This document shows positions 2,326 to 49,174 of a stretch of DNA of 64,000 nucleotides, in pieces. The position numbers and the translations under genes were made by a program. The DNA is from Minisyncoccota bacterium (GTDB lineage Bacteria; Patescibacteriota; Minisyncoccia; Phycocordibacterales; UBA9973). The notes under the pieces were generated by a model. It had not been told where the DNA came from. It made no database searches and worked only from the letters and a program-made list of their open reading frames with translations. How positions within the stretch are numbered: position 1 is the stretch's first letter; the number at the start of each line of letters is the position of its first letter. The stretch is taken from contig JAGOSH010000002.1 in NCBI GenBank assembly GCA_018062425.1, positions 9,541 to 73,540 of the forward strand, in the 5' to 3' direction.

Positions 2326-3180
2326 TTACTTAACTTTTTTACCTAGTATATAGGCTTCTTGGCCGATGCCTTTGCAATTGTGAGCGAACACGATGACACC
2401 ATCCCTGTCTGACTTTCTTATTTCAGTACCATCTGTACCGATGACCGCACCTTTTTTAATTGGGCTGAAATCAACAAATTGTTTTTTGAGGGTGAAAGAT
2501 TCTGTTTTAGTTAAATACAGACTCTGTACTACAAAAGCCGGACGAGTGCTTTTATGGGTGTTTGTCTTATCAAGAATATGCCCCTGAGCTTTCAAAAAAG
2601 CGATAAGGGTGTCTTCTGCTATGTTTATAGAATTAGGATCATTGTGTTGTCCGCATTCAACAGTTATTCCGATCTTGCCTCTATCATTCATATAATCCTC
2701 CGTTGCTCCTGGCTCTATTTTGCCGAACCCTCCGACTTCGCGTACAAATCTTTTTGTAAAATAAGGTGTTATTTTATTTGCATTTTTTTCGCAAATGATG
2801 AAAGGCTTGCTTCCTGGATTGGTTGTGGAATGAATATCCAACAATGTTTCAGCTTTATTCAAGAACTTCTTTAGATACTGAGCTCTTTTGTATTCATATG
2901 TTTTTTTGATTTTCAGGTTATAAAGTTTTGCATCTCGAAATGCTCTGTTTATATTGAATTCTGTAAATCTAACATTCTTTTGTATTGCTTTCGGATTACC
3001 GAATACAAAATACACTTCGCCAGAGTCTAGCCTCAGGTTGGGAACAATTTCATAAAAGGCTTTTACGCCACAGACCTCGTTTCCGTGTATACCTGCAAAT
3101 ATAACGCTTTTGGGACCAGGTTTTTGTCCTTTCAGTAAGTAACCTTTCTCAAATTTTGAAAACCATTCTTTTTTATTCAT
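2326..3180 (-). CDS. succinylglutamate desuccinylase/aspartoacylase (AstE/AspA, M14-like) family protein
   Basis: GIHGNEVCG zinc-ligand motif, plus DIHSTT and ITVECGQH. The ATG at 3180 is preferred over the TTG at 3195, because TATAAT (3187-3192) lies 6 nt upstream of it. Confidence 0.7.
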   Translation of the reverse strand: MNKKEWFSKFEKGYLLKGQKPGPKSVIFAGIHGNEVCGVKAFYEIVPNLRLDSGEVYFVFGNPKAIQKNVRFTEFNINRAFRDAKLYNLKIKKTYEYKRAQYLKKFLNKAETLLDIHSTTNPGSKPFIICEKNANKITPYFTKRFVREVGGFGKIEPGATEDYMNDRGKIGITVECGQHNDPNSINIAEDTLIAFLKAQGHILDKTNTHKSTRPAFVVQSLYLTKTESFTLKKQFVDFSPIKKGAVIGTDGTEIRKSDRDGVIVFAHNCKGIGQEAYILGKKVK

Positions 3181-3192
3181 ATTTTTATTATA

Positions 3193-3225
3193 CAAAAAAA
3201 CAGGCTGATCGGGTAATCAGCCTGT
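3193..3225 (-). terminator. intrinsic terminator after the GNAT gene
   Basis: 10-bp stem acaggctgat (3200-3209)/atcagcctgt (3216-3225), then TTTTTTT on the minus strand. It overlaps the GNAT stop codon. Confidence 0.7.
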
Positions 3226-3753
3226 GTCGTTTTCTGGGAAATACCAAGCTGCATTTTCTGCAAAAGGGCAAAAATTGCAAACACAAGGACCTTTTGGACA
3301 CATGCAAAGTTGTTTTCTGAGTTCAGAAAGTTCCTCTTGGTTGTCCATCGGTCTTCCTCCAATCTTCATAAAGAGATCTTGTATTGCGGAGTTGGTGGTT
3401 ACGCTAACAGGGAACCATCCTTTTTCTCGAGCAATCTGTATTCTCTCTTCTACGAAGATTCTTGCAAGTCCTTTTCTCCTGAAGTCAGGCTCCACAAAAT
3501 TCGAACCCAGTTCGACTACCGTTTTGAGCCCAAAATTTATGGGCTCGTGAGTCGCTGTGCGAGCTGGCACTATGGCGGCAGCACCTACGGGCCTTCCTCC
3601 GTGTAATGCAATCACAGCATGGAGTAGATCAGATTTGAAACTCTGATCAAGAGAAACCATATGTGGTTCTCTTTGTGTTGCAAGAATCCACCAGTTAAGA
3701 TAATCATCTATCTCTTGTTCCGGTGCAAGGTGAAGAAAATCAATATTATTCAT
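3217..3753 (-). CDS. GNAT family N-acetyltransferase with Cys-rich C-terminal tail
   Basis: VEPDFRRKGLARIF is GNAT motif A. The tail is CMCPKGPCVCNFCPF. Confidence 0.65.
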   Translation of the reverse strand: MNNIDFLHLAPEQEIDDYLNWWILATQREPHMVSLDQSFKSDLLHAVIALHGGRPVGAAAIVPARTATHEPINFGLKTVVELGSNFVEPDFRRKGLARIFVEERIQIAREKGWFPVSVTTNSAIQDLFMKIGGRPMDNQEELSELRKQLCMCPKGPCVCNFCPFAENAAWYFPENDTG

Positions 3754-3791
3754 TGTATTAAAAATTGGTTAAAGAACAAAGTGAAAAACAA

Positions 3792-3814
3792 AACGACCTC
3801 AGCGTGAGATCGTT
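3792..3814 (-). terminator. intrinsic terminator about 120 nt downstream of pepN
   Basis: Minus-strand hairpin AACGATCTCA-cgc-TGAGGTCGTT followed by TTTGTTTTT. Confidence 0.5.
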
Positions 3815-3935
3815 ATTTGAAAGTTCGTAATTGTGGGTAGGGGAGATATTACAAACACTCTGAAACGGCCTCACTGGTGAGCGAGTTCCGTCTTCGTAGT
3901 GATACTGCGTTTACTGTAATATCGAAATTCATAAT

Positions 3936-6518
3936 TTATAGATTACTCCTTTTCAGGAATTTGTCAAGGGCTTTGGCGTCGCGCTTTAGGCACAATACTT
4001 TGGCCTCTATACGTTCTTTGACTTGTTCTATGGATCGGTCCGCACCTGGGGCAGGGCGGTTTTTAAAGAAGGTTTTGTAGAAATCTAGGTGTTTTTTCTC
4101 TGGACTATTGCCTAGGGCGTAGAGGAGTCTACCCAAACTATGCCCACCATCACCATACCTATTTAGCATTATCTGCCAATTTGTTTTCATGCATTTTACC
4201 CAAATGTCCCGTCCGTTTGGGTTCATGGCCAAGTAGGATAATATGCCGATAGTGTCCTGAGGTCGGACGTCTTTTGACAGTGCAAAGTGTACAGTTTCGC
4301 AGAGTAATTTGTTACTTTCAAAGTCGCTTAGAGCATAGCCGATTCGGTTTTTTTCTTCGTGCAAGGTTTCAGCTTTGTATAATTTTACCAAAGCTTTGTA
4401 TTCTTTTTCTCCACCGTATTTGGCGGTAATGCTGTATGTGAGGCCACGCATGTTGGCATCGACTTTTTTCTTGGAAGAAATATCAGAGAAAAGTTTCTTG
4501 ACCTTTTTGATTACTTCTCCGAATCCTGCTTTCCCAAGCATCGAGATTATGAGTGGACGCAGGAGTATGTCTGTGTGGGTGTCGGTTAGTTTCTGCTCGA
4601 ATCCGAGCTTTCCATAAATAGGTAAATATAGATTGATAATAAATTTATTTAATTTGCTGATATTTTTGGTCTTGGCGAAAATTTGTTTCAAAGTACCTAG
4701 GCCAGAAGCTATTTCCAGCCAGACGATATACTCTTCTTCGTCTCGATAAGAAAGCAGAAAATCTAGTACATAGTCCACAGGCACTTTGCCGGAAGCGTTC
4801 AAGGCAAAAAGGTCACGAATGATTCCGAGTCGATCAACGTTGCTGATTTCTTTACGCAGAACAGCTTCTTTTAGTTCAGACAGTAGTTCATGAGAATACG
4901 CAGTACGGAAAAAACTAGTTTCGTTTTTGTTTACCTTGATCCAGTTATGGTTGCCAGGAATGGTGATCTGATTGCGATCAAAGAATATTTCTTCGCTACC
5001 ATTTTCCGTAAGTAGGGTAATCGGAGTAGGCCAGATGGTTTTGTCATGTGCTTGTTTCCCGGATACTGGGCTCGCGAAAAACCTTTCTTGAGTTAGTACT
5101 GTTTTATTATTTTTCTTAAATATCTGAACGAGAGGGTAACCAGATTTACTGGTCCAGACATTCATCATTTTCTTTATCGGTTTTTTCGACACCTTCTCAA
5201 AGGATTCCCATAAATGCACTGTCTCCGTATTTTTATAACTGTGTTTTTTCAAATAATGTCGGAGGCCGTCGCGGAATTGTTCTTCACCCAAGTATTCCGC
5301 CAGCATGCGAATGACTGAAGCACCTTTGGAATAAGACACTTCATCAAAAGCTTCTCCGATTTCGGATGGGTGGTGTACGGTAACTTCGATGGGGTGGGTG
5401 TTCGCCAGAGAATCCAGTTTCAAAGCTGCGGCAGTGCCGTGTTGACCTAGGGCAACAAATCTGTCCCAGATTTTCCATTCCGGAAATAGCTTATCAGTTA
5501 CAACATACGGTATATAAGAAGCGAATCCTTCGTTGAGCCACAAGTGCGTCCACCACTCCATTGTTACCAAGTTGCCGAACCATTGGTGAGCCAACTCGTG
5601 CGCGATTACTTCTACTATCCTTTCTTTTGAGCCGAGTGAAGTATTGTTTTCGTCAACTAAAAGTCCCACTTCTCGAAAAGTAATTGCACCCCAATTTTCC
5701 ATAGCCATGGAGGTGAAGTCCGGAATTGCTATCATATCCAAAGTGTTTAACGGATACGGAATATCAAAATATTCTTCATAAAAATCAAGTATGGATGCAG
5801 TTATGTCGAGAGCGAAATTCGCTTGTGACTTCTTGCCCGGGGTGGTGTAGACTCGCACCAACACACCATTTTTGGATTTCTTCTCTATGTATTCAAACTT
5901 ACCGACAATAAATGCGAGCAGGTAAGTAGACATCTTGGGTGTCGGTGCAAAACGTACGACTTCAAACCCGGCTTCATGTTCTATCTTTGATACCGGTAAA
6001 GTGTTCGATATCGCAGTCTGACCTTTTGGTACCACCAACGACACATGGAACACTGCTTTATGAGCTGGTTCGTCGAAACATGGAAAAGCTCGGCGAGCGT
6101 CCGTCGCCTCGAATTGAGTGGTTGCTAGGTGATTGACCTTACCTTCGTATACATAGGAGCTTCGGTAGAATCCGCGCATTTTGTCGTTTAGGACACCTCG
6201 AAAAGTAATAGTCAGTTGATTCTTGCCTTTGGATAATTCTTTGGGAAAAGTAAAAGTCGCAGTTTCGTTCTCCTCGTTATAAGTTATTTTGCCAAAAATC
6301 TTTTCTTGCTTTAGCTTGAATTCCACAGTGTCTATCGAGATTTCTTTAGAATGCAGGGTGATTTTTTTGATAGGGGAGGCAACCGAGAGGGTGATTACTT
6401 CAACTCCCGAAAAAGTAAAATTTTCAAGATCTGGGTGCAGTTTTATATCGTATTCTATTGGAAGTAGGTTTTTATCCAGGCGAACTTTAACCTTATTTTT
6501 ATTACTTTTATTTTGCAT
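3936..6518 (-). CDS. pepN: M1 family aminopeptidase N
   Basis: 860 aa. GAMENWG exopeptidase motif and HELAHQWFGNLVTMEWWTHLWLNEGFA (HExxH-18-E). Confidence 0.9.
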   Translation of the reverse strand: MQNKSNKNKVKVRLDKNLLPIEYDIKLHPDLENFTFSGVEVITLSVASPIKKITLHSKEISIDTVEFKLKQEKIFGKITYNEENETATFTFPKELSKGKNQLTITFRGVLNDKMRGFYRSSYVYEGKVNHLATTQFEATDARRAFPCFDEPAHKAVFHVSLVVPKGQTAISNTLPVSKIEHEAGFEVVRFAPTPKMSTYLLAFIVGKFEYIEKKSKNGVLVRVYTTPGKKSQANFALDITASILDFYEEYFDIPYPLNTLDMIAIPDFTSMAMENWGAITFREVGLLVDENNTSLGSKERIVEVIAHELAHQWFGNLVTMEWWTHLWLNEGFASYIPYVVTDKLFPEWKIWDRFVALGQHGTAAALKLDSLANTHPIEVTVHHPSEIGEAFDEVSYSKGASVIRMLAEYLGEEQFRDGLRHYLKKHSYKNTETVHLWESFEKVSKKPIKKMMNVWTSKSGYPLVQIFKKNNKTVLTQERFFASPVSGKQAHDKTIWPTPITLLTENGSEEIFFDRNQITIPGNHNWIKVNKNETSFFRTAYSHELLSELKEAVLRKEISNVDRLGIIRDLFALNASGKVPVDYVLDFLLSYRDEEEYIVWLEIASGLGTLKQIFAKTKNISKLNKFIINLYLPIYGKLGFEQKLTDTHTDILLRPLIISMLGKAGFGEVIKKVKKLFSDISSKKKVDANMRGLTYSITAKYGGEKEYKALVKLYKAETLHEEKNRIGYALSDFESNKLLCETVHFALSKDVRPQDTIGILSYLAMNPNGRDIWVKCMKTNWQIMLNRYGDGGHSLGRLLYALGNSPEKKHLDFYKTFFKNRPAPGADRSIEQVKERIEAKVLCLKRDAKALDKFLKRSNL

Positions 6519-6541: not shown

Positions 6542-7297
6542 ATGTCTTCTCTACTTGAAGAAAAATCTGCATATACTATTAAAACCGGGACTTTCGAGGG
6601 CCCTTTTGGTTTGTTGCTGTCTCTAGTAGAAGACAGGAAGCTTTTCATAAATGATGTGTCCTTGGCTCAAGTCACAGAAGACTATCTAAAATACATAAAT
6701 AATTTACCAAAAGAAGAAAAGGAAGAAATAGCCAGTTTTATCTTAGTGGCGGCAACACTCATTTTGATTAAATCCAAATCACTCTTGCCGGATTTGTCAT
6801 TATCCGCAGAAGAAGAAACTGATATCAGGAACCTAGAGGATAGACTCAAGCTTTATGAGTTATACAATAATTTAGCAGTTCACATAAAAGACAATTTCGG
6901 AAAGAAAATAATTTTTCCAAGCGAAGAACGAAAAATTGCAGTCAAGATTTTCTTGCCAGATAGTCAGATTACCAAAGAAAGTATGCTAGAGTTGGCTTCC
7001 AGTTTGCTAAACAAGCTTCCAGGTAAGGCAAAACTCGGAGAAGTTGAAGTAAAGAAAGTTATCAGTATCGAAGAAATGATTGATAAATTAACTGACCGAA
7101 TCCAGTCTACTCTGAAGTTCAATTTCCGAGAATTCTCTGGTGGTACGAAAACCAAAGAAGAAAAAGTTTTTGTTATTGTGGGCTTTCTGGCAATGCTCGA
7201 GATGATCCGAACTGGTATCCTAGAAGCAGTGCAAGAAAATAGTTTTTCCGATATTATTATTGAGAAGCAAATAAACAATCATGAAATTAGCGAATAA
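6542..7297 (+). CDS. scpA: segregation and condensation protein A
   Basis: FEGPFGLLLSLVEDRKLFINDVSLAQVTEDYLKYI is the ScpA N-terminal signature. Confidence 0.85.
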   Translation: MSSLLEEKSAYTIKTGTFEGPFGLLLSLVEDRKLFINDVSLAQVTEDYLKYINNLPKEEKEEIASFILVAATLILIKSKSLLPDLSLSAEEETDIRNLEDRLKLYELYNNLAVHIKDNFGKKIIFPSEERKIAVKIFLPDSQITKESMLELASSLLNKLPGKAKLGEVEVKKVISIEEMIDKLTDRIQSTLKFNFREFSGGTKTKEEKVFVIVGFLAMLEMIRTGILEAVQENSFSDIIIEKQINNHEISE

Positions 7298-7829
7298 AAT
7301 AGAAGCCATACTTTTTTTCAAAGGAGAACCGATGTCCAGTAAAAAACTAGCATCTATTCTCAAGGTAACTACTACCGAAATAGACGAAGCAGCGAACGAA
7401 CTATCGGCTAGTTACGAAGGCCGGGGTTTCGTGCTGATCAAAAATACCGAGGAATATTCTCTGGGAACAACACCAGAATTGTCTGATTTGATTGAGGAGA
7501 TGCAAAAAGAAGAATTGAATAAATCACTTACCAAGGCAAGTTTAGAGACTCTTACCATTATACTGTACAAGAATGGAGCAAGTCGAAGCACGATAGACTA
7601 CATCAGAGGAGTGAACTCGAGCTTTACCTTGAGAGCTTTATCGATGCGTGGATTAGTAGAGAAGGTTACCGACCCGAAAGATACCCGTAGATACATTTAT
7701 CAACCAACCACAGAGCTTTTGGCATACATGGGAGTTACCAGAGTAGAAGATTTACCAGAATTTGAAAACATAAAGCATAATTTTGTAGAGGCAGAGAAGA
7801 ATTTAGAAAACAATACACAAGAATCTTAA
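7281..7829 (+). CDS. scpB: segregation and condensation protein B
   Basis: IEAILFFKGEPMSSKKLASIL and ETLTIILYKNGASRSTIDYIRGV. Overlaps scpA by 17 nt. Confidence 0.85.
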   Translation: MKLANKIEAILFFKGEPMSSKKLASILKVTTTEIDEAANELSASYEGRGFVLIKNTEEYSLGTTPELSDLIEEMQKEELNKSLTKASLETLTIILYKNGASRSTIDYIRGVNSSFTLRALSMRGLVEKVTDPKDTRRYIYQPTTELLAYMGVTRVEDLPEFENIKHNFVEAEKNLENNTQES

Positions 7830-7843
7830 TTTAAAACAGGAGT

Positions 7844-8758
7844 ATGCAAATCACTAAATACGAAAAAGGGTTACTAGTGTCACTTTTTATTCTGGCTATA
7901 GTTGCCGGTAGTTTTTATGCGGAAAATAAAAAAAGAGAAGACGCTATAGAAAAAGAAAGAACGGAGAAAGTACAAAAAGAGCTTGAGGTACAAAGGCGAA
8001 TCGAAGCGAGCTTGGGTGGAATCGAGCTTCTGGCGAAAGCTTTTTCTGTGTACGACATAGATACCCACAAGAAAATCTATGGCAAAAACGATGATATGAA
8101 GCTACCGCTGGCGTCACTCGCAAAAACGATGACGGTTATGGTTGCACTAGACACTAATACCAAAAACTATATAAAAATCACACCTGAATTTTTAAAAGAA
8201 GAAGGAGAATACAACATAGTCGAGGGCGAAATATGGGACGTAAAAGACTTGTCACGTTTTGCTTTGATATTGTCGTCTAACGACGCAGCTGCTGCTATCG
8301 CGCGGGGAGACAAAGATTTTGTTACCAGAATGAATGCAAAAGCTCAAGCGATCGGAATGAGTAACACAATTTTTTCCAATGTTACCGGTTTGGACATTTC
8401 AGAAAATACTGCTGGAGTTTACGGTACCGCAGAAGATGCCAACAAGTTAGCGTCGTACGCCTTTTTAAATTATAGTGAAGTATTCGAGGCTACAATCTGG
8501 CCAGCACTCCGAGTAAAGTCAGAGTCTGGTTATACTCACGACATAGTGAATACAAATTTGATAATCAAAGAAGTGCCGGGAATATTATTTTCGAAAACTG
8601 GCTTCACCGAATTGGCAGGTGGTAACCTAACTGTAATATTCAACAATGCGTACGCCCACAGACTCGCTGTGACTCTGCTCGGCTCAACCATGCAGGGTAG
8701 ATTCAGAGACATGGAAAAAATAGTAGAAGCACTGTATAATTTACAGTATGAGATTTAA
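7844..8758 (+). CDS. D-alanyl-D-alanine carboxypeptidase (S11 family)
   Basis: SxxK (SLAKT), SxN (SSND) and KTG (SKTGFT) motifs, with an N-terminal TM helix. Confidence 0.75.
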   Translation: MQITKYEKGLLVSLFILAIVAGSFYAENKKREDAIEKERTEKVQKELEVQRRIEASLGGIELLAKAFSVYDIDTHKKIYGKNDDMKLPLASLAKTMTVMVALDTNTKNYIKITPEFLKEEGEYNIVEGEIWDVKDLSRFALILSSNDAAAAIARGDKDFVTRMNAKAQAIGMSNTIFSNVTGLDISENTAGVYGTAEDANKLASYAFLNYSEVFEATIWPALRVKSESGYTHDIVNTNLIIKEVPGILFSKTGFTELAGGNLTVIFNNAYAHRLAVTLLGSTMQGRFRDMEKIVEALYNLQYEI

Positions 8759-9644
8759 AAAAGTTTTTTTGTTTCTATTTACCTTTCTATTGGTTGCATC
8801 GCCTTATATAACACTAGCTCAAAATCAAAACGTTGGTTTTGTTGAAACTAATATCTGGTATTCCAAGGATCCTTTCGAGGAAGGAGATAAGATTAAAGTT
8901 TACACTTTAGTATTCAACCCGTCTGCCAAAAACTTCAAAGGTACAGTATCGTTTTTCGACAAGACAACTCTTTTGGGTAAAAAAGATTTTACTATTTCCA
9001 GCTTGAGCGCTGAGCCTGTTTTTGTCGACTGGACTGTCACGGTGGGTGGTCATCAGATATTTGCTAGAATCGAGAACCCGCGTCTTGAAGTTTCTGCAGG
9101 AAAATACGAAGAAATTTCTTTGGCCAATACGGAAACCGATAAAAGCGAACACACTGTCGCCAAGAAACTTCCGAATGTTAAAGAGGTCAAAGAAAAAATA
9201 AATGAAACTCTGGATTCTAGTATTAAGCCGATAGAAGATCTGAAGGATAAAATAAATGAAAAATTGCCACCTTCGGTGAGCAAACCAGTAAACAGCGCTT
9301 TTGGATTTATTGAAGAGGCTAGAATAAATGCTTCAGACTCCATCGAAGAGAAGCGCCTGGAAGTCAAAAGTGAGATAGATAAAATTCAAGAATCCTCTAA
9401 TCCGAGCCAAGAAAACATCGACAAGGAAACTGGTGACAAGTCAGACGTTTCTACCGAAATTACAGACACTGAGAATACTGAGAACAGGCCGGTGTCTGTC
9501 AGCGCCCAAACCCCACTCAAATATGTGTCATTATTTTTCTTAACTCTTTTGGGTTATGTGCTGAAATACAAAATACTTTTCTACTTGCTTTCGTTGGTAA
9601 TAATTTACCTAATCATTCGTTTGATCATCAAACTGTTCAAGTAG
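8748..9644 (+). CDS. hypothetical exported protein with C-terminal TM anchor
   Basis: Signal-like N-terminus, acidic low-complexity middle, hydrophobic C-terminus. No family recognised. Confidence 0.5.
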   Translation: MRFKKVFLFLFTFLLVASPYITLAQNQNVGFVETNIWYSKDPFEEGDKIKVYTLVFNPSAKNFKGTVSFFDKTTLLGKKDFTISSLSAEPVFVDWTVTVGGHQIFARIENPRLEVSAGKYEEISLANTETDKSEHTVAKKLPNVKEVKEKINETLDSSIKPIEDLKDKINEKLPPSVSKPVNSAFGFIEEARINASDSIEEKRLEVKSEIDKIQESSNPSQENIDKETGDKSDVSTEITDTENTENRPVSVSAQTPLKYVSLFFLTLLGYVLKYKILFYLLSLVIIYLIIRLIIKLFK

Positions 9645-9679
9645 TTTGTTTTTTGGGTTTAATTTTGTAAGATAAATAA

Positions 9680-9964
9680 ATGTATACCAGAATCCCGTTT
9701 GTTCTATTGTTTGCTTCTTCTGTACTCTGGGGGCCATTTTGGTTTTCCGCGATTTTGCTCCTAATCGGTGTTGCTCTGTATAGATACTTTGTAGAAGCTC
9801 CGATTTTGATGCTTTTGGTTGACCTACTATACGGTGTGCCACTCGACAGATTCTATGGTTATACTTTTGTGGCTTTTTCTTTTGGAATGATACTTTTGTT
9901 TTTGGCAGAATATATCAAGAAAAAATCGAGGTTTAAAACTTTCTATGAAAAAAACATTTCTTAA
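9680..9964 (+). CDS. small polytopic membrane protein (MreD-like by position only)
   Basis: 94 aa with 3 predicted TM segments, immediately upstream of and overlapping PBP2. Confidence 0.4.
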   Translation: MYTRIPFVLLFASSVLWGPFWFSAILLLIGVALYRYFVEAPILMLLVDLLYGVPLDRFYGYTFVAFSFGMILLFLAEYIKKKSRFKTFYEKNIS

Positions 9965-11660
9965 AAAAAGAGGACGATATCACAATGTGCTTGTTGAACC
10001 AGATGAAATCTTCTTGGATTCTGAAAACTTGGCTGGGTTTAACGAACAACAATTCGAAGGGCGAATCGAGAAACCGATTAAAAGTCGCACGATATATTCT
10101 GTAGGCATATTTTTCGTAATTTTCATCTTAGTTTTTTCTGGACAATTGTTTAATTTGCAAATAAAAAATGGTGAATCTTATTTCAAAAGAAGCGAGAACA
10201 ATACTTTGAACAAAGCTATCATTTTTGCCGAACGAGGAATTATTTATGATCGCAACGGTGTAGAACTAGCTTGGAATAGTAAACCAGACGTCGCCGAGGC
10301 GGGAGTTTTTTCAACCAGGATGTACAAGACCCCGGGATTTTCTCATGTGCTCGGTTATCTCTCCGCTCCAGCCAAGGATGACAAAGGTGTATTCTGGCAA
10401 ACCGAATTCGTAGGCAAGGACGGTTTGGAAAAAATTTATGCTGACAGGTTGGCTGGAGAGAATGGTGCTAAAGTAATAGAAATAGACGCTCATGGAGCAG
10501 TTCATTCGGAAAATATAGTAAACACTCCGAAGCGAGGCGAAGACCTGTACACCACGATCGACTCGCGACTGCAAGCGGAGCTGTATAACCTGATAGCAGA
10601 ACATTCCCGAGCAAATTCTTTCATCGGTGGTGCGGGAATAATTATAGACGTAGGAAGTGGTGAAATTTTAACTTCGACCAGTTACCCTGAATACGACCCA
10701 TTAGTGCTTTCTTTTGGTAAAGATTCTGAGAAAATTCAAGGCTATCTAAAAGACAAACGTAAAGTTTTTCTAGATAGAGCTATCTCTGGGTTGTATGCTC
10801 CTGGTTCGATAGTCAAACCGTTTTTTGCTCTGGGAGCTTTGGCAGAAAAAATAATAGACCCATACAAAGAAATACTTTCGACTGGATCCATCGCGATTCC
10901 TAACCCATACGTAAAAGGCGCGGAAACAGTCTTCAAAGACTGGAAGGCTCATGGTTGGACAGATATGAGTGAAGCGATTGCGGTTTCTTCGGACGTGTAT
11001 TTTTATGCTATTGGTGGTGGTTTCGAGTCGCAGAGAGGATTAGGAATTAGTAATCTAAATAAATACGCGAGACTTTTTGGAATTGGAGAAAAAACCGGAG
11101 TTGATTTACCGGACGAGAAGAGTGGAAACATACCCAGCCCCGAATGGAAACTAAAGACTTTCAAAAATGATCCTTGGCGCATAGGTGACACCTACCACAC
11201 CGCTATCGGTCAATATGGTTTTCAAGTTACACCCCTCGAGATGGCTCGGGCTACGGCGGCGCTAGCAAATGGAGGCACATTGGTAACTCCTCATTTTATA
11301 AACAAGGACGACAAGGGAGCTCCTGTAAAGCAAATAGTTGATGATAAAATTTTGGATTCGCATTATACTAGTGTGAGAGAGGGGATGCGAGAGGCGGTGA
11401 CATATGGTGCAGCTTTAACCATGAATGTCCCTTTTGTAGATGTTGCAGCTAAAACCGGTACAGCCCAAGTCGGTATTTCGAAAAATAAAGTGAATTCTTG
11501 GGTCATAGGTTTCTTCCCGTATGAGAACCCCAAATATGCTTTTACTGTTATGATGGAATCTGGGCCAGCAGTCGGTACCGTAGGTGCAGCCCCGATAATG
11601 CGCCAATTACTGGACTGGATGGCCATTTATACCCCAGAATACTTCGATAAACAACCTTAG
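9945..11660 (+). CDS. mrdA: penicillin-binding protein 2 (transpeptidase)
   Basis: SxxK (SIVKP), SxD (SSD) and KTGTAQ motifs, with an N-terminal TM helix. Confidence 0.85.
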   Translation: MKKTFLKKRGRYHNVLVEPDEIFLDSENLAGFNEQQFEGRIEKPIKSRTIYSVGIFFVIFILVFSGQLFNLQIKNGESYFKRSENNTLNKAIIFAERGIIYDRNGVELAWNSKPDVAEAGVFSTRMYKTPGFSHVLGYLSAPAKDDKGVFWQTEFVGKDGLEKIYADRLAGENGAKVIEIDAHGAVHSENIVNTPKRGEDLYTTIDSRLQAELYNLIAEHSRANSFIGGAGIIIDVGSGEILTSTSYPEYDPLVLSFGKDSEKIQGYLKDKRKVFLDRAISGLYAPGSIVKPFFALGALAEKIIDPYKEILSTGSIAIPNPYVKGAETVFKDWKAHGWTDMSEAIAVSSDVYFYAIGGGFESQRGLGISNLNKYARLFGIGEKTGVDLPDEKSGNIPSPEWKLKTFKNDPWRIGDTYHTAIGQYGFQVTPLEMARATAALANGGTLVTPHFINKDDKGAPVKQIVDDKILDSHYTSVREGMREAVTYGAALTMNVPFVDVAAKTGTAQVGISKNKVNSWVIGFFPYENPKYAFTVMMESGPAVGTVGAAPIMRQLLDWMAIYTPEYFDKQP

Positions 11661-44793: not shown

Positions 44794-45654
44794 ATGGAAA
44801 TAAAGAAGCTGCCAGTAGAATATTGGCCAGAGGGCCTTCATGAAATTCCGCAACCTCCAAAAGAACTTTATATACTAGGTGATTTTCCCGACGAAGACTT
44901 GACCTTCTTGTGCGTAGTAGGTTCCCGTAAATTCACAACTTATGGCAAAGATGTTTGTGAGAAATTGATCACAGGGCTCCGTGGTTACCCAGTAGCCATA
45001 GTTTCTGGACTGGCTATGGGCATAGATGCTATCGCTCATAAAAAGGCACTGGAAGTTGGGCTCAAAACTCTGGTCTTCCCTGGTTCAGGACTTTCAAAAG
45101 AAGCCATGTATCCAAAAACAAATGCTATCTTAGCAGAAGATATAGTAAAAAAAGGCGGGTGTTTGATTTCTGAATTCGAACCGAACTTCAAAGCCACCCT
45201 TTGGAGTTTTGGAAAGCGAAACAGGCTCATGGCTGGAATTTCTAAAGCAGTATTGATTATCGAAGCCGCCGAAAAGTCCGGAACACTCATTACCGCGAGA
45301 CTAGCAACAGAATATAACAAAGATGTATTGGCAGTACCAGGGTCAATATTTTCCCCGAATGCAAAAGGTACCAACATGCTTCTACGACTCGGCGCTACTC
45401 CCATAACCTGTGTGGAAGACCTGCTAGATGCTTTAGGATTTAAACAAGAAACAGACAGCGAAAAACAGCAGAAACTTTTTGCTGACTTGTCGCCAGAAGA
45501 AATGAAAGTGGTAGATATATTAAGTGAGCCCATGCCTCGCGACGAACTGATCCGCGAACTTGATATGAGCGTGGCCGACGCTAACACTCTGCTCACGGTA
45601 ATGGAGATAAAAAAGCTTATTAAAGAAGAGATAGGCGAAATCAGGCTCTACTAA
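44794..45654 (+). CDS. dprA: DNA processing protein DprA/Smf
   Basis: VVGSRKFTTYG, SGLAMGIDAIAHK and SGTLITARLA. Confidence 0.85.
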   Translation: MEIKKLPVEYWPEGLHEIPQPPKELYILGDFPDEDLTFLCVVGSRKFTTYGKDVCEKLITGLRGYPVAIVSGLAMGIDAIAHKKALEVGLKTLVFPGSGLSKEAMYPKTNAILAEDIVKKGGCLISEFEPNFKATLWSFGKRNRLMAGISKAVLIIEAAEKSGTLITARLATEYNKDVLAVPGSIFSPNAKGTNMLLRLGATPITCVEDLLDALGFKQETDSEKQQKLFADLSPEEMKVVDILSEPMPRDELIRELDMSVADANTLLTVMEIKKLIKEEIGEIRLY

Positions 45655-46331
45655 TCATCCTCGTCTTCGTCTTCGTCCCATTCGCTCCAATCTACTTCAT
45701 CATTTTCTACTTCAGTTTTTATTACTTCCCCACTTTTACTGATATGAACTTCGTATAGCTTGTCGTTGTCGATAACTTTGGCAACATAGAAATCACTTTT
45801 TGGTTCTACTTTAACTATCTCGCCATTGGGATATATTTTCTTTAATGCTTTTTCAATATCGGTTAAAGATTTTTGCGTATTAGACACAGGAATACCGGCG
45901 GTTGAGCTACCCACCACCGTGGTAGCGGATCCAACTTTCCCTACATAATATTTCTTGAGCAAATTCCACGCAAAATTGGAGTGAATCGTAGAGAATACTT
46001 TTGTAGCTTCGCTTCCACACCTACTGGTGATATTCCTAACTCCACCGGGGTGTTGGTTGATATATGTAGACACGTTATATACAGCATCATTTACGATCAA
46101 ATAACAGTCGCCCGCCGTATTATGATTTGCTATGTTTTCGAGGGTTAGGAGGTTTTTCGGATCTACTGCTACTATCGGTGATACTCCGTTTGTAGTACCA
46201 ACAGGGGTAATGTCGGTGGTTTGTGAAGAATTACTAATCGAAGAAATAAAATCAGTAGGCAAAACCGCAAGCGCCGTAAAAAAGGCGATAAAAATAAACA
46301 AAGAAATAAGTGTTATTTGTTTGAGCTTCAT
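45651..46331 (-). CDS. exported cytochrome b5-like heme-binding domain protein with PepSY-like domain and acidic tail
   Basis: N-terminal TM or signal sequence. CYLIVNDAVYNVSTYINQHPGG (cytochrome b5 HPGG motif). YVAKVIDNDKLYEVHISKSGEVIK (PepSY-like). C-terminus is DEDEDEDD. Confidence 0.6.
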   Translation of the reverse strand: MKLKQITLISLFIFIAFFTALAVLPTDFISSISNSSQTTDITPVGTTNGVSPIVAVDPKNLLTLENIANHNTAGDCYLIVNDAVYNVSTYINQHPGGVRNITSRCGSEATKVFSTIHSNFAWNLLKKYYVGKVGSATTVVGSSTAGIPVSNTQKSLTDIEKALKKIYPNGEIVKVEPKSDFYVAKVIDNDKLYEVHISKSGEVIKTEVENDEVDWSEWDEDEDEDD

Positions 46332-46346
46332 ATGACTATTATACTA

Positions 46347-47657
46347 CTAATCCCTTAAATTAAATTCTTCGGAGTGAATAAACTTGTTCTTTACCCCCGA
46401 GGCTAATAACTGCTTTCGCATCGATCGGATCATTACCGGCGGAGCGCATAGAAATACATCTTTATTATTAAATCCATTAGACTTTGTATTTACAATATCT
46501 GCATTTATGAATCCATCTGTATCCGAATAATGGGTAATTATTTTTATTTTACTATTTTCTTTTGTTTCGTATTTCTTTAAATCTTCTAAGTGCACGGCCT
46601 CTTTTTCATTCTTTAAACAATAATAAAAGTCTACAGAATATTCTGGCTCTTTGGACACAGAATCAATCATAGACAGGAATGGGGTTACCCCTATTCCTCC
46701 GGCTATCCAGATTTGATTTTTATTTTCGGAATCTTTGTAGGAAAACTTGCCGAACGGACCTTCTATTAAAGCTTCGGACCCAACAGACAAATTCGGTAAC
46801 TCGCTCGTATAATCCCCCAATACTTTCATAGTAAAAGATATCTCATCTAGACCCACTGGTGAAGACAATGAAAACGGATGACTTTCTTTGGAAACCTTAA
46901 CATCTTTGAAACTAACAAAGGCGAATTGGCCCGGGGTGAAGTTGAGCTTTTCTCCGGCGGGTTTGAGCAGTACTTCTGTTACATTACCCCCGAGGACTCG
47001 TACCGCAGACACTATATATTTGTATTTCTTCACAAAGTAATGCCCTAGCACCGAATGATATATAAAAGAGTATATTCCAAAAACAAAAACTACTAATATG
47101 TAAATGCGCAGTGGCATATATGTAGCCACATCGCTAGGAATCATAAACGCATGCACCGCCCCAAAGAAAAACGCCAGACCCATGAATTTGTGAGTCCATT
47201 TCCAGATGTGGTACTTGGGTCGTAGATACAGAGTTAGCACGATCAGTAACACCATCAAAGCTAGTGAGAAAATGCCCCAGTTGATGGACCAGTCCAAACT
47301 TGGCGTAAAAAAAGAAATAGCTCCACCAAAACTGAAACCACGATAATTACCCAAAAGTAGTAGTGGGTGGAAAAGCATCAGCATGAATGCTACCTGGCCT
47401 ATCTGACTATGCCTCTCGTATACCTTGTTCAAACCATAAAAGATATTTTCGAGAAAATGAAACCGAGCAGACAATATCAGCGATGTGGCAAAAAGCGTGA
47501 ATCCAAGAATACCGAAAGCCTGTCCCAACATAAACAGTACATCGAGGGTGCTATTGAAAGTAAAAACAGTTGTTGGCGAAAGCACCCAGAGTGCTACCCC
47601 TACGATAGATATAGCTATAACAAAAAATATTCCTAAGTTGTATTTGAAAGTTCTCAT
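46347..47657 (-). CDS. NOX/FRE family flavocytochrome (ferric-reductase TM domain + FAD + NAD(P)H domains)
   Basis: Two His pairs with 13 and 12 intervening residues (ERHSQ..LFHPL and WTHKF..AVHAF). HPFSLSS is the FAD motif, IAGGIGVTPF the NAD motif, followed by CAPP. The start is set at 47657, because TGCTACAAT lies 8 nt upstream. Confidence 0.8.
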   Translation of the reverse strand: MRTFKYNLGIFFVIAISIVGVALWVLSPTTVFTFNSTLDVLFMLGQAFGILGFTLFATSLILSARFHFLENIFYGLNKVYERHSQIGQVAFMLMLFHPLLLLGNYRGFSFGGAISFFTPSLDWSINWGIFSLALMVLLIVLTLYLRPKYHIWKWTHKFMGLAFFFGAVHAFMIPSDVATYMPLRIYILVVFVFGIYSFIYHSVLGHYFVKKYKYIVSAVRVLGGNVTEVLLKPAGEKLNFTPGQFAFVSFKDVKVSKESHPFSLSSPVGLDEISFTMKVLGDYTSELPNLSVGSEALIEGPFGKFSYKDSENKNQIWIAGGIGVTPFLSMIDSVSKEPEYSVDFYYCLKNEKEAVHLEDLKKYETKENSKIKIITHYSDTDGFINADIVNTKSNGFNNKDVFLCAPPVMIRSMRKQLLASGVKNKFIHSEEFNLRD

Positions 47658-47702
47658 GTTCAAGCATTGTAGCATATTTAAATATTGGCATAAAAACAAT
47701 TC

Positions 47703-47729
47703 AGCCACATTCCTTGTCGAAATGTGGCT
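47703..47729. terminator. intrinsic terminator
   Basis: 9-bp stem agccacatt/aatgtggct with T-rich flanks on both strands. Confidence 0.55.
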
Positions 47730-47824: not shown

Positions 47825-48466
47825 CTAGTCAGCCAAATAAGGCTGGTCCTTTCCATTTTGATGGACAATACTTTTTCCAGTTACCACATTCACTTCAATA
47901 GAATATTCAGCCGAAACAGTGGCCAACCAGATCGCGCCGTTTTTGGTAATAACAGCAGAAGTGGTGACAACCAAACTCGGTTTATTCTTTTGAAAAGTGA
48001 CAACCCTCAACTCTCCATGGTTTTCGTCCAGCAAGAATTCAACGGTGGCATACTCAGCCATGAGGAAGTTGGGACTAACCTGGATGTTTTCTGAAATCGA
48101 AGAATTCGTCATTTGCGGCAAAGTCTGAATGAAGGCAATCAACTCCAGTGTGCTTTTGTTCCGCTCCTGCAGAGCAAGTGTGTCGCTTGCGCAAGGAGCG
48201 CATTTTTTGAGCAGAGTAATCTGAGTGTTTGCCTCCGCGGTGTCAGCTTGGAGTTTAACAATCGCTGCCTTCAGATCCGGAACGGACATCAGACTTGGAT
48301 TGAATAGGACATAGGTTTCTTCTCCTTCGTCTTGAGGGACTAGTCGAAGTCCGGGGGCCTGAGCATTATACATAAAGACGCTGCTCGGGATTTGTCCAGT
48401 TTGTCCAAAAACGGAAAGAGTGAAGGAAACGAGGGTAATGGCGGTCAGAATGATGTTGCGTACCAT
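47825..48466 (-). CDS. hypothetical exported protein
   Basis: 213 aa with a signal-like N-terminus. No family recognised. Confidence 0.5.
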   Translation of the reverse strand: MVRNIILTAITLVSFTLSVFGQTGQIPSSVFMYNAQAPGLRLVPQDEGEETYVLFNPSLMSVPDLKAAIVKLQADTAEANTQITLLKKCAPCASDTLALQERNKSTLELIAFIQTLPQMTNSSISENIQVSPNFLMAEYATVEFLLDENHGELRVVTFQKNKPSLVVTTSAVITKNGAIWLATVSAEYSIEVNVVTGKSIVHQNGKDQPYLAD

Positions 48467-48715: not shown

Positions 48716-49174
48716 ATGGGAGGACTAGAAGGACCAAAATTACCACCTCAGCCACCTATCGACGAGGCTGAAACACGAAAGTATCAAGATGTAGTAGCAG
48801 ATCGTAAAGCAGGAAAAGTAGAAGAAGGAGAAACTTACAATCTCCCAGCTGATTACGAAGGAGGAGCCGGAGAACCGGTGTTTCGAGTGCAGTATGAAAT
48901 TAAATATACCAGAGCAGATAGTAGTACATACACTCGTGAAGGTTTGGGTGAAAGTACTGATGTCATCTTGCGAAAGAGCGACTTGGAAGCACTCCAAGCA
49001 TTGAAAGCTGGTGATGTAGTTCCCAGCGACTCACGATTCCCAGAAATCTTTTGGGGTGTTACAATTTCAGACAAATACAAAATCCGTGAGGATCATGCTC
49101 CTGGTACAAGACTTCTTTATTTAATCAAGACTTCAGCTGGTGGAAACGTTCAGCCAAACTACCCTAACAGTTAA
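48716..49174 (+). CDS. hypothetical cytosolic protein
   Basis: 152 aa with a Pro/Glu-rich N-terminus. No family recognised. Confidence 0.5.
   Translation: MGGLEGPKLPPQPPIDEAETRKYQDVVADRKAGKVEEGETYNLPADYEGGAGEPVFRVQYEIKYTRADSSTYTREGLGESTDVILRKSDLEALQALKAGDVVPSDSRFPEIFWGVTISDKYKIREDHAPGTRLLYLIKTSAGGNVQPNYPNS

Follow-up and report, generated by a model that had tools for sequence, protein, structure and literature searches.

To what, and to what end, do bacterial homologues of the NADPH oxidases (NOX) deliver their electrons? The question arises at a pair of genes in a 64,000-nucleotide stretch of a Minisyncoccota bacterium (contig JAGOSH010000002.1 of assembly GCA_018062425.1, positions 9,541 to 73,540), called the window below. 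In this stretch, the gene for a membrane flavocytochrome resembling the NOX of Streptococcus pneumoniae (SpNOX) is followed after 15 nt by the gene for an apparently exported cytochrome b5, a natural candidate for the acceptor that is genetically linked to the reductase, in a system as simple as two proteins. In our assessment, the two genes probably form a bicistronic operon that encodes a minimal chain for outward electron transfer, running from NAD(P)H through the reductase to a tethered b5 and on to an acceptor outside the cell. The operon is real, conserved and mechanistically suggestive, and it belongs to a gene pairing already noted in the Candidate Phyla Radiation (CPR). A 2021 preprint on the origins of MAPR proteins described the colocalisation of putative ferric-reductase (pFre) genes and b5 genes in CPR and proposed a membrane complex with a CPR-specific function (bioRxiv 10.1101/2021.11.17.468889), so that the novelty here is limited. 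What is new is the link to the acceptor of SpNOX, the occurrence of the pair in DPANN archaea, a variant with a PepSY-like domain and a parallel pairing with c-type cytochromes in Rhizobiales; the pair is of value because it opens the acceptor question for bacterial NOX homologues to direct tests. The two genes are:

46347-47657, minus strand: SpNOX-like long-form ferric-reductase-domain flavocytochrome, 436 amino acids from its ATG (stop codon included in the coordinates; public gene calls give the same product).
45651-46331, minus strand: predicted to be an exported cytochrome b5 tethered to the membrane, ending in a PepSY-like domain and an acidic tail, 226 amino acids (stop codon included).

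Several lines of evidence tie the two genes together. First of all, a scan of one genome per species gave 80 loci with relatives of the reductase (labelled L plus a number), in which b5 genes were sought with an iterated b5 profile; at 23 of them a b5-domain gene lies directly downstream of the NOX-like gene on the same strand. The arrangement of adjoining genes, which a first-pass annotation of this DNA had described from the sequence alone, thus recurs in other genomes. Second, the gaps between the genes are mostly -4 to +25 nt, three outliers being partly artefacts of first-Met starts, and ten of the pairs overlap by 4 nt at start and stop (ATGA type). Third, the pairwise identities of the NOX and b5 proteins correlate (r=0.63 for 24 pairs, with 0 of 2000 permutations as high), and, independently, 19 of the protein-search matches for the two genes fall on contigs of identical length. 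Finally, clustering of the neighbouring genes leaves NOX and b5 as the only two families common to all b5-positive neighbourhoods, and no third conserved family was found across 25 neighbourhoods. In one other locus the b5 gene lies upstream instead, and another (L012) has a decayed copy.

All b5-positive loci come from CPR- or DPANN-type metagenome-assembled genomes (MAGs), and no adjacent b5 gene was found in the Proteobacteria, Chloroflexota, Actinomycetota or Clostridium loci of the scan. The archaeal side is represented by L018, in which an archaeal aIF5B-type IF-2 (629 bits against a cut-off of 468) is encoded a few kb from the pair, and by L011 and L037, which carry the pair and are labelled Pacearchaeota and Woesearchaeota. 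Eight loci (L008, L024, L030, L032, L042, L046, L052 and L075) are labelled as uncultured Gammaproteobacteria/Pseudomonadales and have NOX-like genes that group with Patescibacteria, as do the adjacent b5 genes of L008, L042, L046, L052 and L075; the taxonomy given for these co-assembled MAGs may not be reliable.

In CPR, this pairing is not the surprise that it had been taken for on first inspection, when such a chain was called unexpected in a genome of this kind: PF01794 occurs in 1427 of 7645 CPR genomes, and PF00173 lies within 10 kb of it in 185 of those (bioRxiv 10.1101/2021.11.17.468889). The window is alike, its PF01794 and PF00173 genes lying 15 nt apart and thus well within the 10 kb used there, and an exact sequence match assigns it to a Candidatus Pacebacteria (Patescibacteria/CPR) MAG, GCA_017991565.1. 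The preprint centres, however, on the MAPR-like, Tyr-ligated cytb5MY, with extra b5-like proteins and a two-component system, and the cluster with cytb5MY and a two-component system is proposed as the ancestral form. The window, by contrast, holds a minimal two-gene form with a classical His/His b5, no MAPR-like open reading frame (ORF) anywhere along its length and, within 10 kb of the pair, no gene called as a response regulator or kinase. The fuller form of the cluster is present at five of the scanned loci. The preprint reports no ferric-reductase/b5 pairing outside CPR, whereas here the pair is also on an archaeal contig; by a term search, its text nowhere mentions NADPH oxidase, PepSY, signal peptide, extracellular or DPANN (bioRxiv 10.1101/2021.11.17.468889).

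We turn now to the two proteins themselves. The features of the reductase, all on the minus strand, are:

47043-47657: six-helix transmembrane (TM) haem domain, residues 1-205, with four His invariant in 28 homologues.
47409-47411, 47367-47369, 47190-47192 and 47151-47153: codons of the haem ligands H83, H97, H156 and H169.
46350-47009: cytoplasmic dehydrogenase domain with an FAD lobe and an NAD(P)H lobe (from Pfam and alignment).
46869-46880: HPFS, residues 260-263, in the FAD lobe.
46677-46700: GGIGVTPF, residues 320-327, in the NAD(P)H lobe.
46362-46364: C-terminal aromatic residue F432, invariant in the alignment.

The Pfam domains Ferric_reduct, FAD_binding_8 and NAD_binding_1 all match above their gathering cut-offs, and the closest solved relative is SpNOX (PDB 8qq7/8qta; E 1.6e-36, residues 46-428), in agreement with the pneumococcal-type architecture proposed at first. 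The His pairs H83-x13-H97 and H156-x12-H169 align with H69/H83/H129/H142 of SpNOX, the ligands of its inner and outer haems (PMC11564096); their spacings of 13 and 12 residues had been read correctly, as had the HPFS and GGIGVTPF motifs, but the pairs are in TM3 and TM5 and not in adjacent helices. In the alignment of the 28 homologues (45-90% identity), the four haem His, H260-P261-F262, most of GGIGxTPF and F432 are invariant and S263, G320 and T325 nearly so, so that the cofactor motifs on which the assignment had been based are conserved. The reductase passes every sequence filter for bacterial NOX (Hajjar 2017), having two bis-His motifs (H-x12-14-H) in the separate helices TM3 and TM5, HPFSL at residues 260-264 for the FAD filter H[PSA]F[TS][LIMV], and GIGVTP at residues 321-326, which is conserved among the homologues. 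The signature of dedicated NOX that generate reactive oxygen species (Zhang 2013) gives a different picture. The equivalent of NOX2 His119, four residues past the outer TM3 haem ligand, is absent, its place being taken by Leu101, invariant in the 28 homologues, and the invariant G128 is preceded by W127, as opposed to the Thr178-Gly179 dipeptide in TM4 of NOX2, an equivalence drawn by eye without a NOX2 alignment. Since the His that marks a dedicated O2-reducing NOX is lacking, the label NOX, as first given, says more than is known, and the protein is best described, from its sequence, as an SpNOX-like long-form ferric-reductase-domain (FRD) flavocytochrome.

The comparison with SpNOX bears directly on the acceptor. 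Both proteins are single chains with six TM helices, two bis-His haems, an FAD lobe, an NAD(P)H lobe and a C-terminal aromatic residue, and both lack the His of the eukaryotic O2 site. Their identity is moderate, however, the TM3-TM4 outer loop is ~9 residues longer in the window reductase, and the window gene has a coupled neighbour that encodes an exported b5, whereas no partner gene is mentioned in the searched passages of three SpNOX papers. Both SpNOX structure papers regard the physiological function as unresolved and report an unusually exposed outer haem and direct reduction of cytochrome c, and one of them proposes a protein acceptor. The purified enzyme reduces cytochrome c in a direct reaction that proceeds anaerobically and outpaces its reduction of O2, and its direct ferric reductase activity is weak. 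A translationally coupled, co-varying and exported haem protein is thus a candidate for the protein acceptor that has been proposed for SpNOX. The same relationship can be turned the other way. The window reductase could be a true NADPH oxidase that passes electrons from its outer haem to O2, forming superoxide or H2O2 to scavenge O2, as a weapon or as a signal to the host, with the b5 as an accessory (a regulator, superoxide sink or stabiliser) and not the acceptor. SpNOX, the closest characterised relative (E 1e-36), does oxidise NAD(P)H with O2 as the acceptor, and a rubrerythrin gene (Pfam; L037 1616-2194) follows the pair at the Woesearchaeota locus. Nevertheless, the invariant Leu at the position of NOX2 His119 speaks against this reading, the SpNOX authors themselves doubt that O2 is the physiological acceptor, and a translationally coupled, co-varying, haem-binding partner with invariant ligands would be left unexplained. 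We therefore regard it as unlikely.

The features of the b5 protein that bear on haem binding and export, again all on the minus strand, are:

45927-46154: cytochrome b5 haem domain, residues 60-135 (Pfam Cyt-b5; AlphaFold2 fold).
46050-46052 and 45981-45983: haem ligands H94, in HPGG at residues 94-97, and H117, the downstream His.
46104-46106 and 46017-46019: Cys pair C76 and C105, invariant.
46266-46325: hydrophobic helix at the N-terminus (residues 3-22), which may be a signal anchor or a signal that is cleaved (AlphaFold2; Kyte-Doolittle hydropathy 2.7).

The Pfam Cyt-b5 model (PF00173) matches residues 63-133 with E 1.9e-19 and 69.9 bits, against a cut-off of 23.7. H94 and H117 align with the ligand-bearing motifs of classical b5 structures, the HPGG and the downstream His, and neither the two His nor the two Cys vary among 27 members of the b5 family or among 24 diverse b5 domains encoded next to NOX; these ligands predict a haem-binding domain of the bis-His class. 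The positions of the Cys pair (DCW...CG) are shared with 1CXY, the periplasmic cytochrome b558 of Ectothiorhodospira vacuolata, in which the two are reportedly joined by a disulfide. 1CXY is likewise an exported bacterial b5 fold with His/His ligation, but it is small and soluble and has no known NOX-like partner, whereas the window protein is anchored and has a linker, a PepSY-like domain and an acidic tail.

In the AlphaFold2 model, the N-terminal helix (3-22) is followed by a disordered linker rich in Ser, Thr and Asn (residues ~33-58; predicted local distance difference test, pLDDT, <50), a confident b5 domain (60-135), a second, short linker, an alpha+4-strand domain also modelled with confidence (156-209) and, last, a disordered acidic tail. 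A positive N-terminus with a hydrophobic helix of ~20 residues, negative charges after it, a low-complexity tether and two invariant Cys together place the b5 domain outside the membrane, and thus indicate, as far as topology can be predicted, that it is extracytoplasmic. A hydrophobic segment of the same type begins every syntenic b5 partner; an A-L-A motif in the window protein is not conserved. In three partners (L013 7236-8333, L033 7251-8384 and L052 7215-8066), there are two tandem b5 domains, each with its own His and Cys pairs, as would be consistent with a relay; a divergent PepSY-like end is found in two of these three. Separately, three Saccharibacteria partners (L015 6661-7431, L020 1555-2517 and L017 7176-8282) have a very divergent b5-like domain without HPGG, preceded by apparent repeated beta-rich modules; near the pair, L015 encodes a second large protein with the same divergent domain (8503-10983) and L020 an 829-residue repeat-rich protein (3135-5621).

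The C-terminal part of the window protein, on the minus strand, consists of:

45702-45869: PepSY-like domain, residues ~155-210, in which a single helix packs against an antiparallel sheet of four strands (profile; AlphaFold2, pLDDT ~88).
45654-45701: acidic, Trp-containing tail D-W-x2-W-D-x-D-x-D-D, net charge -12, conserved.

A sequence profile of this domain matches 4fr9 (E 9.5e-6), and, when the domain is modelled alone, the best Foldseek matches are 4fr9, 4k61, 4hbr, 4ipb and 3due (TM-score 0.63-0.67; root-mean-square deviation, rmsd, 1.2-1.4 Å), the best six all being DUF2874/BLIP-like proteins (TM-score 0.59-0.67). By contrast, Pfam PepSY_like (PF11396) scores 16.4 bits against a cut-off of 28.3, and Pfam PepSY (PF03413) matches 3 of 18 members (best E 0.0065), none at its gathering score. 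Because the Pfam models stay below threshold, "PepSY-like" is a statement at the level of the fold. The first description of this protein, as a signal- or TM-anchored b5 with a HPGG haem domain, a PepSY-like domain and a poly-acidic tail, thus agrees with the Pfam match, the hydrophobic helix, the charge of the tail and the fold and profile of the PepSY-like domain, and parts company with Pfam on the last alone. The periplasmic PepSY_like/DUF2874 (BLIP-like) proteins 4fr9, 4k61 and 3due have the same alpha+4-strand fold (rmsd ~1.2 Å over 52 residues), and PepSY-type domains accompany other membrane b-haem proteins too, as in the PepSY_TM haem reductases and with the PepSY_2 protein at L085; the window domain differs in being a single repeat below the Pfam threshold, with a W-rich acidic tail, and in occurring almost only at the C-termini of exported b5 proteins. 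In the alignment of the domain, E58, D60, W61, W64 and D67 (alignment numbering) are invariant. The domain-plus-tail module is rare, with 51 clusters among 1.84 billion cluster representatives, and its strong non-fragment matches are nearly all proteins of 200-290 residues that also match the b5 profile. Judged by this distribution, the predicted module is an accessory specific to exported b5 proteins. Many orthologues lack it and stop directly behind the b5 domain or have the acidic tail only. At L012, the ORF after the NOX-like gene (2508-3023) has the PepSY-like domain and the acidic tail intact and a b5 part degraded to a relic of its last helix, and may be a pseudogene or an assembly frameshift.

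How, then, would such a chain work? Cytosolic NAD(P)H would be oxidised at the FNR-type domain of the membrane flavocytochrome, and electrons would pass from FAD to the inner b haem, to the outer b haem and so to the membrane's outer face; the redox potentials set this direction, NAD(P)H being a much stronger reductant than b-type haems. The outer haem would then reduce the co-encoded cytochrome b5, a transfer that is suggested by the genetics of the pair. The b5 would be held at the cell surface by its N-terminal anchor on a flexible linker of ~35 residues, and owing to this flexibility the bis-His haem domain could first bind at the exposed outer haem and afterwards move off to pass its electron on. 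Extracellular Fe(III), another metal or another external oxidant would be the most likely terminal acceptor, with O2 as an alternative, and the role could be metal assimilation, an electron outlet that regenerates NAD(P)+ for a fermentative cell, or both. The PepSY-like domain and acidic tail would be an optional accessory, probably for docking, positioning or cation binding. The two-component chain from NAD(P)H to an extracytoplasmic b5, which had been put forward from the window alone, is thus the reading best supported by synteny, gene overlaps and co-variation, with the step from reductase to b5 as its conjectural part. We infer that b5 is the cytochrome used in CPR and DPANN because its non-covalent b haem needs no cytochrome-c maturation machinery. 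If the chain operates, these organisms gain a membrane redox outlet, despite their usual description as having no electron-transport chains, and must take haem from outside.

Several observations weigh against the chain. In general, CPR bacteria are not known to have haem biosynthesis, so that the three haems of each system would have to be scavenged. SpNOX reduces O2, and reduction of O2 by the reductase alone is therefore possible. Many close NOX relatives, one of them 74% identical (L009), have no adjacent b5, which means that the reductase can work without one or that its partner is encoded elsewhere. A natural NOX-b5 fusion was not found, a profile search with 24 b5 domains giving short single-domain proteins only (in a small set of 382 candidates), and no clear charge complementarity was found between the outer loops of the reductase and the b5 domain with its acidic tail.

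Another possible arrangement is that the exported protein with the b5 fold binds haem or iron chelates from outside and that the reductase, by reducing them, allows their release and uptake, with no standing relay. CPR cells presumably must scavenge haem. At three Saccharibacteria loci (L025, L026 and L029), there is an apparent ZIP-like metal permease beside the pair, a putative assignment made by reading the sequence of a His-rich multi-pass membrane protein encoded upstream on the opposite strand. Some CPR operons, moreover, add a MAPR-like, Tyr-ligated b5, a type that binds ferric haem tightly and ferrous haem weakly (bioRxiv 10.1101/2021.11.17.468889). The window, on the other hand, has no such gene, and its b5 shows bis-His HPGG ligation of the classical type, as is usual in stable electron carriers, with both His invariant; purified SpNOX is weak in direct ferric reduction. 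Haem or iron acquisition of this kind is in our judgement distinctly unlikely as the function of the window pair.

A further reading keeps the b5 as a true acceptor and makes it an intermediate that feeds a specific extracytoplasmic enzyme, such as a repair reductase or a lipid- or cell-wall-modifying oxygenase, by analogy with MsrQ-MsrP of E. coli. MsrQ-MsrP is the sole FRD system with a known physiological partner, and eukaryotic b5 typically serves desaturases and hydroxylases. The likeness to the window pair is a functional analogy only: in both, an FRD haem protein with an exposed outer haem would pass electrons to an extracytoplasmic partner encoded by another gene. MsrQ lacks a fused dehydrogenase domain, and the cited papers name Fre or the quinone pool as its source of electrons, whereas the window reductase has such a domain fused; MsrP is a molybdoenzyme and the window partner a b5 cytochrome, with no sequence relationship between the two. 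The pair is thus not of the MsrPQ type, which combines a YedZ-type FRD without a dehydrogenase with a molybdopterin partner. It counts against this reading that no third family is conserved across the 25 neighbourhoods and that the exported 213-residue protein encoded upstream in the window is not beside the pair elsewhere, and we give it only a slim chance. Mere adjacency of two genes with unrelated functions is barely credible, since, even if most relatives of the reductase outside CPR and DPANN and some inside them have no adjacent b5, gene order and orientation agree at 23 independent loci across bacteria and archaea, often with a 4-nt overlap, and the two proteins co-vary.

Returning to the outward chain, we can ask whether it is a special case of something wider. 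In six Rhizobiales loci (L071, L077, L078, L079, L080 and L082, about 7100-10600 in each), the NOX-like gene is followed within a few nt by the gene for a protein of ~1100 residues that has a hydrophobic, signal-like stretch at its N-terminus and the domains Cytochrom_C, Cytochrome_CBB3 and PSCyt1, which, from these predicted features, looks like a parallel pairing of a reductase with an exported cytochrome. Other genes directly downstream of NOX-like genes encode a PepSY_2 protein (L085 7295-7687) and a DUF2271 protein (L084 6674-7168), both of periplasmic type, and a cytochrome b561 (L039 7116-7673). Independent lineages thus put extracytoplasmic redox proteins in the same position. It is a tentative and, for the present, somewhat doubtful extension that exported cytochromes, and not O2, are the physiological acceptors of the whole SpNOX-like family, b5 in CPR and DPANN and c-type in Rhizobiales, and that the module is a minimal extracellular electron outlet in ultra-small episymbionts, exchanged laterally between bacteria and archaea. 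Were this so, cells that are supposed to be purely fermentative would rid themselves of electrons from NAD(P)H by passing them to external or host-derived acceptors.

The surroundings of the pair bear on its expression. Two elements upstream of the reductase gene, on the minus strand, are:

47703-47729: 11-bp hairpin followed by a T-run, terminator-like (intergenic fold z = -4.7).
47666-47674: extended -10-like element TGcTACAAT, read directly from the sequence and ending 8 nt before the reductase ATG.

The hairpin is probably the intrinsic terminator of the preceding gene and would isolate the NOX-b5 pair. The -10-like element was not called by a promoter consensus scan, since it has no -35; as it ends a mere 8 nt before the ATG, the leader may be very short or missing, and the transcript leaderless or nearly so. 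Together, the terminator-like hairpin and the -10-like element make it likely that the pair is its own bicistronic unit, and it is probably autonomous in transcription. A longer reductase with a GTG start at 47708 was ruled out, as this codon is inside the hairpin of the preceding gene and homologues and public calls have 430-436 residues.

The neighbours are housekeeping genes, the convergent dprA and then serS and topA. The b5 gene and dprA share 4 nt at their 3' ends (45651-45654), and no terminator-like site was found between them. Upstream of the pair, ORF 47825-48466 (minus strand) encodes the 213-residue protein mentioned above, with an N-terminal hydrophobic segment of the exported type, and ORF 48716-49174 (plus strand) encodes 152 residues; neither has a Pfam or NCBIfam match, and both are next to the pair only in contigs of the source organism. 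An Rfam scan of the window gave two tRNAs only, with nothing near the operon. Finally, the reductase gene had been thought much more AT-rich than its partner (about 30% against about 48% GC), but both genes have 39.1% GC in a window of 40.7%, which also rules out reading horizontal transfer from AT-richness. The earlier estimate was probably misled by a local dip, the last ~300 nt of the reductase gene (46347-46649, the end of the NAD-binding lobe) having 32% GC and the remainder 41%.

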